Of a DNA stretch of 64,000 nt, positions 34,153-38,300 are shown in pieces. Where the stretch lies: assembly GCA_964016885.1 (NCBI GenBank), contig OZ024740.1, positions 356,748,001 through 356,812,000 on the forward strand, read 5' to 3'. Each line of letters opens with the position of its first letter. Within the stretch, counting starts at the first letter, position 1. The stretch is from Eledone cirrhosa. Lineage: Eukaryota. A model generated the notes under the pieces. That model saw only the letters and a program-made list of their open reading frames with translations, did no database searches and had not been told where the DNA came from. The translations under genes were made by a program, and so were the position numbers.

Positions 34153-34488
34153 ATATATATATATATATATATATATATATATATATATATATATATATAT
34201 ATATATATATATATATATATATGTAAGTATGTATGTATACGTACATACATATATGTATACAGACGTACAGTAGCATGCATATATATATATATATATATAT
34301 ATATATATATATATATATATATATATATATATACATACAGGTACACATACATATATGTACGTATCAGTTTAGCGGACGCTTATTATAACGCCCGCTTTGT
34401 TCGTTTGTAAACAAACTGAACAGCCTGAAGCTATGCCGTACGGTGTTAAGGCAACCACGTCACCTTTTTGTTCAACACTGACACAGGA

Positions 34489-34531
34489 ACGATGTACTAG
34501 TTTCAAGCTTGTTAGCTATCATCAGCACCGT
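34489..34531 (-). ncRNA. type I hammerhead ribozyme
   Basis: ACGGTG CTGATGA TAGC-TAACAA-GCTT GAAA CTAG TA CATCGT. Confidence 0.87.
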
Positions 34532-35245
34532 ATACCCTTCTGCCAGATGGTTGAACGTTCGAAAGTATATACTTTCCTTATGAAAATTAACGTCTGAGCA
34601 GCCTAATTTGCATATAGAGTGAGTTAAATCGGTCAGGCGTACCGAAAACGATAAGTTGTAATAAAATGAAAACGAAATTTCATTTCTCACTCTTAGTACG
34701 GCACTTACTTAAATGTAAGTATGTATGTATACGTACATACATATATGTATACAGACGTACACTAGCATGCATATATATATATATATATATATATATATAT
34801 ATATATGCATACAGGTACACATACATATATGTACGTATCAGTTTAGCGGACGCTTATTATAACGCCCGCTTTGTTCGTTTGTAAACAAACTGAACAGCTT
34901 GAATTTATGCCGTACGGTGTTAAGGCAATCACGTCACCTTTTTGTTCAACACTGACACAGGAACGATGTTCTAGTTTCAAGCTTGTTAGCTATCATCAGC
35001 ACCGTATACCCTTCTGCCAGATGGTTGAACGTTCGAAAGTATATACTTTCCTTATGAAAATTAACGGCTACTGTACGTCTGTATACATATATGCTACTGT
35101 ACGTCTGTATACATATATGTATGTACGTATACATACATACTTACATTTAAGTAAGTGCCGTACTAAGAGTGAGAAATGAAATTTCGTTTTCATTTTATTA
35201 CAACTTATCGTTTTCGGTACGCCTGACCGATTTAACTCACTCGAT

Positions 35246-35296
35246 ATGCAAATTAGGCTGCTCAGCCGTTAATTTTCATAAGGAAAGTATATACTT
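35246..35296 (+). promoter_or_regulatory. putative snRNA-type promoter (octamer, PSE-like box, TATA)
   Basis: ATGCAAAT at 35246, TCAGCCGTTAATTTTCATAAG, TATATA at 35288; octamer is 88 nt upstream of the hammerhead core in the R1 units that retain it. Confidence 0.5.
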
Positions 35297-35327
35297 TCGA
35301 ACGTTCAACCATCTGGCAGAAGGGTAT

Positions 35328-35370
35328 ACGGTGCTGATGATAGCTAACAAGCTTGAAACTAGTACATCGT
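35328..35370 (+). ncRNA. type I hammerhead ribozyme
   Basis: ACGGTG CTGATGA TAGC-TAACAA-GCTT GAAA CTAG TA CATCGT. Confidence 0.87.
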
Positions 35371-38300
35371 TCCTGTGTCAGTGTTGAACAAAAAGGTGAC
35401 GTGATTGCCTTAACACCGTACGGCATAAATTCAGGCTGTTCAGTTTGTTTACAAACGAACAAAGCGGGCGTTATAATAAGCGTCCGCTAAACTGATACGT
35501 ACATATATGTATGTGTACCTGTATGTATATATATATATATATATATATATATATATATATATATATATATATATATATGCATGCTACTGTACGTCTGTAT
35601 ACATATATGTATGTACGTATACATACATACTTACATTTAAGTAAGTGCCGTACTAAGAGTGAGAAATGAAATTTCGTTTTCATTTTATTACAACTTATAT
35701 ATATATATATATATATATATATATATATATATATATATATATATATATATATATATATATATATATATATATATATATGTGTGTGTGTGTGTGTGTGTGT
35801 GTGTGTGTCGTCTTCAGTATTAGAATGACAATCAAATCAAGATCTGCAAATATTTATATCTGACCAGAAAGAGATTTGCAGGCGCGCTCATAAAAGTCAA
35901 TAATTAGAAAAGAATTATACTATGTATACAAATAACAAATAAGGATTCAGACAATGAAAAAAGAATGATATAAATTTGAATGACTAAATATGCAAGTTTA
36001 CAATTTAACATAAACTAGGAAAACAAATACATCCGAATTGGAAATGAATGAAGTCGATTATACGAAGTCAATAACACTTTTCAAATGCTCTTTTACAAAT
36101 TACTCATCCACAATATATGACAAGTTCCGTGACCTAATCGTCAAAATTCACGAGATATTTTTGGGTGCATTAAAAAACAAAATATCTTTAATTGGTCACC
36201 TCAATAGATGTTTAACTAATGTTGCAAGATAACACATACGTAGATATTTTCATCAAGCTAGGCTGAGCCATTATATAGCTAAAGTTATTAACATTTAACT
36301 GTCTAACACGATACTCTAACAGTGACAAACTATAAACTCTATACTCGGAGAACATATCCAGTCGACCATCTCCAGGTTTTTATCCATATATATTGAATAT
36401 ATGGAACCAATAAAACAAATTAATGTTTTTTTTAAATTATTTTATGAGTGTTATACATCCGTCGCATCCGACTACAAATGTTCCAACTGATTTGTGGATT
36501 TAATGTGCAAATGGCTACGAATTCCACAGACTTGTGTACCATTAACTTAATTCTTTAAACGATTCTACGTGACACAGGATGTGGCAACGCTGGCCCATTG
36601 GATTAAGTACACTTCAGACTTGCCAGCTGAGCAGATTTGAGTAACGTGAAATAAAGTGTTACCGCTGGTAACCGAACGCAAGACCTCACTATTATGAGAC
36701 TAACACGATAAAAATCTAAGCGAGGCGCTGTTATGTTTGGAAATATGATAACCATAAATGTAAATCTTTCTTCATCATACTAATAATCGTTTGAATGTCT
36801 TGACGTAAATACAATGTTTGGATACTAAGACGCCTATATAATCGATTGGGATTTGGCATGGTGTTGTGGGATTATCCCAAAGTTGTAAGCAGAAGGAAGC
36901 CTATAAAATCGATATGGATGAGCATGTTTAAATCATTGAATAGAAGGAAAATTCGATAGTATTTTTTCACTCTTCATTTACTGGTTTCAGTTATCTGACT
37001 GCGTTCATGCTTGGTAGACTTCAATGATTACAGTTGAGTATATCATACTATCGTTCTCTTCAGATACAAAATGCAAAACAGATATTGGTGGTAGGAAACA
37101 TTTCCAGTCGACGACGAATAATAGAGGGCTTATCAGTTAGAATAATTCGGACTTGCCCCAAATTCCACCACAATGTTTTCGACAATGCCAGGTTAACGAC
37201 AAGGGAGGAAGATGCGTATTGTGCAGAGAGAACAAACTTGAAACTATGCGGTTGTGAAACAAACTTATTAACCACGTTTTTATGATTGCGCCTATGAATG
37301 TTGTGAATAAAACATAGTATGTTTTCTCTTTGCAACATATATTAACATAATTCAAAGATTTCTAGCTGCATTATACCTATAAACTATAGCCTATGCAAAA
37401 GGTGTTAACAAAAAAGATAACATGAATAATATTGACTACCCAATGAATATCCTTTCATGCGAATCGATTTCTTATAACTTCCACACATCAATTTTATATG
37501 ATGTTTTTTTATCTCTTTTGACTATGAATAAATATCTCTTCTAAAGCGATTATTGAAGAAATGTTAACATACAAATTTACAAAATAGATAAACATATCGC
37601 AGTATTCTTAAGGAAATGTTGAATTTTGTGGACTATAGGAAACAAACTTAATAGTTACTGTAGATCTACTTGTTGTTTCTTTTACTCTTATGTATTCATG
37701 AACTGATTTGCGTAAAATTCTGCCAGTAAAGGGATTAAACAAGCATCACCTAATTACATTAAGTAAACTTCTATTTCTGAATATTTTCAAGGAATGGAAA
37801 TGTATTACAATGAAAGTTTCAAAAAGAAAACAGTTTTGCAAAAGAAACATTATTGGCGAGTGTTATCTGGGATCCTGAGCAGGTGATTTTCAGAAAAATA
37901 ATTTTTTAAATAATAATTTTAAAATTTTAATAGCCGTACGTTCGTTTGAAATATGCAATTTGATTTTAAAATCGTTTCAAGAATAAATTTATGAGAACAG
38001 AAATATGAGCTGAATTTTTATATCAAAATACAAATAAATATTAACCAAAATACAAATAAATATTAACCATAAATATTAACCAAAATAAAGTACGATAAAT
38101 TTACTACCATAACACTAGATATATTTCCCTTCCTTGCGTATGTCTTTCTCCCCCCATCTCTCTATTTCACTCTCTTCCTATTTACCTCTTTTCGCTCGTA
38201 TTCGGTTTTATAATTTCCCCACCAAGTAGTTTTATACGCTCTATACGACTATCCTTTATTTTCTTTTTTATTCTGTTAAATTCCACGAATGAAACTGCAC

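Follow-up and report, generated by a model that had tools for sequence, protein, structure and literature searches.

A stretch of 64,000 nucleotides from Eledone cirrhosa (GenBank assembly GCA_964016885.1, contig OZ024740.1, positions 356,748,001 to 356,812,000 of the forward strand; hereafter the window, numbered from its first letter) was analyzed for R1, a family of repeats that carry hammerhead ribozymes and in which no open reading frame of at least 150 amino acids was found. The window contains two R1 insertions, representing two subfamilies, A and B, which are about 77% alike. The subfamily-A insertion (34222-35696) is located within a (TA)n tract (34153-34221 and 35696-35778) and consists of two back-to-back arms. 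The right arm (35068-35696, + strand) comprises about 1.3 units, in which one promoter block and one hammerhead are intact, and terminates at a fixed site termed the long end. The left arm (34222-35069, - strand) comprises about 1.8 units, begins just past the octamer-like box with its first promoter cut off, and terminates at the short fixed end. The subfamily-B insertion (10516-11155, - strand) comprises 1.3 units and a short inverted piece; its box is found at 10898-10909, its TATA-like word at 10856-10871, its hammerhead at 10784-10826, and its long end at 10516, again in (TA)n. The initial annotation described a tandem unit at both loci. The unit periods were recovered (474 nt at the first locus, 34999-34525, and 432 nt at the second), but 34222-35696 is two opposed arms and not a simple array.

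The right arm shows the order of elements in one unit (all + strand). The proximal octamer-like box TATGCAAATTAG (35245-35256), which doubles as the 5' arm of a hairpin, is followed by the PSE-like (proximal sequence element) box of the initial annotation (35262-35273) and by GTATATA, a TATA-like word within a palindrome (35283-35298). The predicted transcription start (35318-35320) precedes a type I hammerhead (35328-35370) with a predicted cut after GUA at 35364. Further downstream are an internal (TA)n tract (35522-35578) whose length varies, the unit period being 395-547 at other loci, and a tail of approximately 62 nt between the short and the long end (35636-35696), which contains a conserved hairpin (35663-35682). 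In the left arm (- strand), a hammerhead copy without the core nucleotide U16.1, which is likely inactive, is located at 34963-35005; the promoter block of the second unit covers 34561-34614 (box 34603-34614, TATA palindrome 34561-34576), and its intact hammerhead covers 34489-34531. The hammerheads, the octamer and the TATA palindrome of the initial annotation were all confirmed: ATGCAAAT starts exactly 88 nt ahead of the core in three units (35246/35334, 34613/34525 and 10908/10820), and GAAAGTATATACTTTC is present at 35283, 35035, 34561 and 10856. The PSE-like word TCAGCCGTTAAT is exact at 35262 and 10892 and has a single mismatch at 34586-34597.

R1 proved to be a multi-copy family, a point for which the initial annotation had proposed a genome-wide search. 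Searches of the genome with A and B yielded 1798 and 1888 first-look candidates, the best 40 of which matched at 98-100% and 95-100%, respectively. A position-blind sample of 99 evenly spaced 10-kb stretches (989,600 bases) contained 17 A/B insertions, including two scraps of 50-60 nt and one 71% relative. With a genome size of 3.0 Gb, this corresponds to approximately 51,000 A/B insertions (95% range 30,000-82,000). Counts over copies are not independent owing to the relatedness of the copies. Three insertions in the sample belonged to family C, a distant R1 homolog estimated at about 9,000 insertions genome-wide, with a 467-bp unit, near-identical copies and arrays of at least 15 kb (C5). 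A piece of family C is present in the window at 11405-11805 (- strand), and its homology to R1 resides in the tail hairpin, the box and the hammerhead (L140-L148). Two further families, D and E, were found in the blind sample; a piece of family E lies in the window at about 50430-50800 (- strand), and others at L234 and L252. In family E the box and ATCAG are triplicated with a 33-bp period, resembling a multiplied promoter or enhancer. Among read contigs, two runs, both from one organism, contained the family, and a 90-95% relative was present in another; these were not used as evidence. The 0.99 Mb also contained 76 hammerhead-like motifs (L164-L262) of at least ten families, many of them in inverted pairs, and a 310-nt array without the box (L210).

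The ribozyme is composed of stem I (ACGGTG/CATCGT), the core CTGATGA, stem II, GAAA, CTAG and TA. With CUGANGA, GAAA, an NUH triplet (here GUA) and stems I and II, it has the make-up of a type I hammerhead, and intact versions are present at 35328-35370 (+), 34489-34531 (-) and 10784-10826 (-); one of the four cores at the two window loci has lost U16.1. The term canonical used in the initial annotation fits the type I core and the CTAG palindrome, but not the stems. In A and B, the G10.1-C11.1 pair that closes stem II is replaced by U.U, and stem III is one pair with a palindromic tetraloop, giving the 6-nt palindrome ACUAGU from which helix III of a dimer could form; in families C and D this position holds G-C or a related pair. 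Among seven related copies from four families, four of six pairs in stem I and three of four in stem II were changed on both sides; judged from these copies, covariation of the stems is above chance, with a shuffle control that is inflated by their relatedness. Rfam gave no match at the gathering score, the best being Hammerhead_HH9 (17.6 bits, E 0.4), and its microRNA matches were artefacts of (TA)n. The isolated 76-nt hammerhead folded no better than shuffled sequences (z -0.10). Dimer-assisted cleavage has been published for type I hammerheads of this kind, and with weak stems II and III the predicted self-cleavage of R1 would likely be efficient only in a dimer.

The promoter block was compared with the upstream regions of host genes for U6, U2, U1, U5, U6atac, MRP and U3 RNA. 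The promoter set consisted of 13 non-identical U1/U2/U5 promoters from 55 loci, 3 U6 from 20, 1 U6atac from 8, MRP, and 4 U3 from 10; near-duplicates, one truncated U3 and copies that lack upstream elements (L037, L044, L045 and L107-L113) were excluded. A TATA-like word near -31 is common to all host small-RNA classes (upstream regions of L031-L106 and L263-L272). It is accompanied in U1/U2/U5 by CAGT at -54 to -57 (13/13) and AATTA near -88, YCAGT (at -54 to -58) being a feature of the host promoters of the RNA polymerase II (Pol II) type. U6 and U6atac have the box at -77 to -79, and the held-out MRP promoter has it at -78. In U3 the box is at -72 to -75, TCA at -54 to -57 and GTATATA at -32/-33. 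The distance from box to TATA is 40-42 in U3 vs 46-48 in the five RNA polymerase III (Pol III) genes (U6, U6atac and MRP), and (T/C)CA occurs at -60 to -52 in all 17 U1/U2/U5/U3 promoters vs none of the five Pol III promoters. A distal TTA(C/T)CTCCC is found near -255 in U1, U2, U3 and U6. Host U3 genes lack the AAnCAGA 3' box of the U1/U2/U5 type and are followed by T-rich sequence, with T7 in one of four. In animals, U3 is generally a Pol II gene.

The retrozyme block agrees with the host U3 layout in its box, TCA and GTATATA geometry. The box scored 17.0/13.3, compared with 11.6-17.2 for host promoters left out one at a time; 5 of 380,138 background positions were as good. The octamer is not a distal enhancer but corresponds to the proximal box at -72 to -79 of host U3, U6, U6atac and MRP promoters. 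Its distance to TATA in families A-D is 42, 42, 41 and 43, and host small-RNA genes have comparable TATA-like words at -31 to -33. (T/C)CA was present at the host-matching place in all seven retrozyme variants compared, and family E has exact ATCAGT, i.e. the full host U1/U2/U5 word. A composite score of U3 geometry gave 25.6-33.8 for families A-D, 33.8-37.4 for U3 itself (part of the training set) and 6.9-13.3 for the Pol III genes; it reached at least 25.6 at two of 1,940,818 masked background positions, both of them in family E. It counts against this score that its spacing window of 40-43 was fixed after the elements had been seen, and that the training sets consisted of 4-9 partly related promoters. 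The block is also conserved, as the initial annotation had asked of the genomic copies: copies from the blind sample differ in 2 of 130 cells of the box (1.5%) and 2 of 105 of GTATATA (1.9%), compared with 386 of 2967 in the flanks (13%), and read variants of at least 10% avoid 35244-35273 and 35283-35298.

The other host layouts fitted less well. TCAGCCGTTAAT, aligned as a PSE to the host U1/U2/U5 promoters, scored -6.5/-5.4 vs 9.4-21.7 for these promoters left out one at a time, a level reached at 13,423 of 380,138 background positions, and it is not conserved in families C and D. The PSE-like box of the initial annotation thus scores at chance; what agrees with the host Pol II-type genes is YCA (TCA in the window) and its position. 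A U1-type promoter defined by TCAG-to-TATA spacing alone failed in the position weight matrix test (equalled at 4102 of 380,138 background positions), and a U6-type promoter, although its box matches, was rejected by the box-to-TATA spacing. The distal TTATCTCCC and upstream AATTAAAT elements of host U3 were not found in the retrozyme unit, and no host-type 3' box was found within it, which makes read-through plausible. T runs are located 0-11 nt before the long end (T6 in B, T5 in C, T4 in A). The polymerase is likely Pol II, of the small nuclear RNA (snRNA) type, because of the U3 geometry, the (T/C)CA and the T4-T6 runs, at which Pol III would terminate ahead of the next promoter. From the host geometry, we infer a transcription start approximately 45-47 nt before the cut site.

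The ends of R1 insertions were analyzed at 30 A loci, five of which were dropped as second views of one insertion, leaving 25 distinct loci. At 24 of the 25, an outer end lies at the long or the short site and is followed by TA-rich sequence. These sites are approximately 62 nt apart, and at all eight loci that combine a long with a short end, the two are on opposite strands. Family C has paired fixed ends likewise, with an offset of 69 nt; for subfamily B the short ends were unusable in the end classification, as the pattern was too loose. The insertions have the anatomy described for Penelope-like elements (PLEs; PMC8557442): they form partial tandems, an inverted arm is truncated at its 5' end, one end alone bears a tail, and the target is (TA)n. 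Inner ends occur throughout the unit; of 62, two are close to the cut site and one is close to the predicted start (2.4 expected each), at loci chosen for containing a full unit and biased accordingly. Among the locus-private changes, 8 are common to both arms and 15 to all units. Together with the inner ends, they fit a process in which each insertion was copied from a single template that lacked a fixed 5' end; this template may have been a circle or a long multimer.

A Neptune-like Penelope element is the direct neighbour of the A insertion, which sits in (TA)n immediately behind it; the tract at 34153-34221 is shared with the 3' end of this element. Neptune-like sequence lies at 4692-6596 (-) and 32469-33686 (+) and gave weak Pfam hits for reverse transcriptase (RT) and GIY-YIG. 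The Neptune-like elements of the window and the sample terminate in (TA)n at two sites separated by 60 nt, and the family carries a minimal hammerhead of its own (cores at 883, 4453, 6600 and 33899). PLE clade names were assigned from linker motifs as compared with the descriptions in PMC8557442. In the loci analyzed, the sole terminal word shared with retrozymes is the 10-nt GAAACGAAAT, found in the Neptune-like tail and in families C and D and noticed after the fact. An open frame of 785 amino acids at 57085-59439 (+) belongs to another Penelope-like type and had no Pfam hit; no hammerhead was found within 650 nt downstream of it. From its motifs, we take this frame to be Hydra-like. Other parts of the window (18896-28846, -; 13862-16173, +; 40824-41412) presumably hold two LINE copies, a 191-bp SINE-like tandem and a further, fragmented non-LTR (non-long-terminal-repeat) element. 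Elsewhere, a U6atac retro-copy is fused to an inverted family-E promoter piece (L110:1330-1640), and other U6atac copies begin in (TA)n (L107, L108); template switching by the same enzymes is a possible source of both.

Taken together, R1 is probably a high-copy, non-coding, self-transcribed non-LTR retrozyme with a U3-like promoter block, copied into (TA)n by Penelope-type enzymes. The promoter part of this reading has three competitors. The box and TATA could have been kept as arms of RNA hairpins in a unit without an internal promoter, transcribed by read-through from the host. That both words are hairpin arms of a strongly folded unit does weigh against a promoter function: 84% and 81% of their cells are paired, monomers in circular form are much more strongly folded than shuffled sequences (z -12.9, -6.1 and -9.4, the value for A being inflated by its TA tract), and GGCAG near the predicted start pairs within an extended stem I. 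However, the box arm is invariant in seven variants while its partner arm changes and acquires mismatches, and one of 11 pairs covaries, compared with four of six in stem I. Family E retains box and spacing although little of the hairpin remains (-1.4/-1.7 kcal/mol). Folding therefore does not explain the match to the host words and the U3 spacing, and this explanation is improbable. A SINE-like unit with a U6-type Pol III promoter, whose transcripts would begin upstream of the ribozyme and end at the oligo(T) close to the long end, with promoter-bearing templates arising by rare read-through, appears scarcely better placed. The box matches those of host U6 and MRP perfectly, T6, T5 and T4 precede the long end in B, C and A, and host U3 is a presumed Pol II gene. 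Against this stand the spacing (41-43 vs 46-48 in 5/5 host Pol III genes), a U6-geometry score of 3.6-8.4 vs 26.2-31.2, the presence of (T/C)CA, and insertions that routinely traverse the T run and the promoter with no pile-up of inner ends at the predicted start. An ordinary Pol II promoter with a POU site and TATA, in the style of histone H2B and immunoglobulin genes, would resemble U3 through shared use of Oct and TBP and not through SNAPc. The absence of the full host PSE word in A-D and a partner arm that reads as a degenerate POU-like site speak for it; (T/C)CA at the PSE position in 7/7 variants and family E, with exact ATCAGT and triplicated box plus ATCAG, make it unlikely.

With respect to the mover, the units may be orphan pseudo-LTRs of an autonomous Penelope, derived from long linear multimers, with cleavage and circles of minor importance. 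A link between retrozymes and pseudo-LTRs has been published (10.64898/2026.07.22.740005); the weak hammerhead and the long family C arrays (at least 15 kb) as possible donors would fit as well. On the other hand, no PLE reading frame continuous with the unit was found in 55 A/B loci or the 99 blind stretches, the PLE 3' regions found have other hammerheads and lack the box, and the core and stems of the R1 hammerhead are under constraint, so that we regard this origin, too, as unlikely. The reading of R1 as a self-transcribed retrozyme has to be set against several further findings. The host PSE word CAGT (13/13) reads CAGC, CACC or CACT in families A-D, family C reads CATATA, and the host upstream AATTA and distal TTACCTCCC elements are absent or weak in the unit. 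The missing 3' box and T-rich 3' flank of host U3 make its assignment to Pol II tentative, and in vertebrates PSE plus TATA specifies Pol III (PMC5493778), though host U1/U2/U5 have TATA-like words too. No autonomous partner with shared sequence was detected among 79 tblastn hits in the loci analyzed. Of 215 private changes present in all units or in one, 200 occur in a single unit only. RNA-editing scars were sought among the locus-private changes without finding an excess of A>G (A>G/T>C/G>A: A 16/11/21; B 10/6/24; C 9/9/10). Among the best-matching loci, eight of 25 from A and two of 25 from B have two intact co-oriented cores; none of the eight blind stretches with an intact A/B core does, nor does either window locus. 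In a published test of frog retrozyme dimers, one of nine was cleaved (10.64898/2026.07.22.740005).

The self-promoting, self-cleaving element proposed in the initial annotation is thus retained as a multi-copy family with a host-like promoter block, but not with respect to monomer release at these loci: lacking two intact co-oriented ribozymes, the window copies would not release monomers in cis. They are likely products and not sources, and, from the distribution of intact cores, only a minority of loci could act as sources. At such loci, the box - (T/C)CA - TATA block would recruit the host small-RNA machinery, with transcription starting 45-47 nt before the cut and Pol II reading through into the next unit. 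Dimer-assisted cleavage would then yield monomers from multi-unit arms only, each cut-to-cut monomer holding the promoter near its 3' end, and the monomers would be ligated into circles. A Penelope-like RT/endonuclease could prime at the two fixed sites and copy round the template, regenerating tandem, promoter-bearing copies. As a tentative extension, an entire retrozyme clade of this host may have captured its U3-type promoter that is kept in the RNA circle and doubles as structural hairpins.

By sequence-level tests, R1 is a metazoan non-LTR retrozyme: it occurs in many copies, and its tandem units are non-coding and have one type I hammerhead each. As in the main descriptions of this class (PMC7229834; 10.64898/2026.07.22.740005), units are a few hundred bases long and low in GC, copies are numerous and PLEs co-occur. 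[quoted passage not shown] The main texts mention neither an internal promoter (the word occurs twice in PMC7229834, both for T7) nor fixed paired ends, and name no cephalopod. Circles are shown there, for coral, mussel and axolotl, whereas those of R1 are predicted; a PLE origin of retrozymes is already proposed in the text of 10.64898/2026.07.22.740005. No description of the R1 family in cephalopods was found in literature searches, although the supplements of PMC7229834 and the bioRxiv paper may list cephalopod hammerheads. Newt satellite 2 likewise is a hammerhead repeat with an internal snRNA-type promoter (as cited in PMC2220036; read by Pol II according to PMC6765202). R1 differs in its invertebrate host, in a predicted promoter with a proximal box followed by TATA in U3 layout, and in mostly short, dispersed two-armed insertions. 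Neptune- and Naiad-type PLEs (PMC8557442; PMC4209133) share with R1 the partial tandems, the inverted truncated arm, the tail at one end, (TA)n and a type I hammerhead. R1, in contrast, has no reading frame, and its tail is 62 nt compared with a published 30-40 bp and 60 in the local Neptune-like family, whose hammerhead is minimal where that of R1 is of canonical size. In the accounts of Schistosoma Sm-alpha in PMC6765202 and PMC2220036, the promoter lies upstream of the hammerhead and therefore ends up at the 3' end of cut monomers, which makes tandems necessary, as would be the case in R1; that promoter is a Pol III promoter, whereas R1 has an upstream block of the snRNA type.

The surprise is limited, as the element class and the newt precedent were known already. 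The breadth of retrozyme transcription and the mover are matters proposed, not shown, in the main texts of PMC7229834 and 10.64898/2026.07.22.740005, and R1 makes both testable, with a start predicted to within 3 nt, U3 as host counterpart, natural variants on which mutagenesis can draw and two fixed priming sites for a Penelope-type enzyme. The comparison also provides a first sketch of the Pol II/Pol III small-RNA promoter code of this lineage (spacing of 40-43 vs 46-48), which is useful for expression tools. If the tentative reading of a captured U3-type promoter is true, every Penelope-made copy would be born with its own housekeeping promoter, which would explain the ubiquitous expression of retrozymes. 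R1 would then represent a convergence with newt satellite 2, and the genome would contain some 60,000 snRNA-type promoters.

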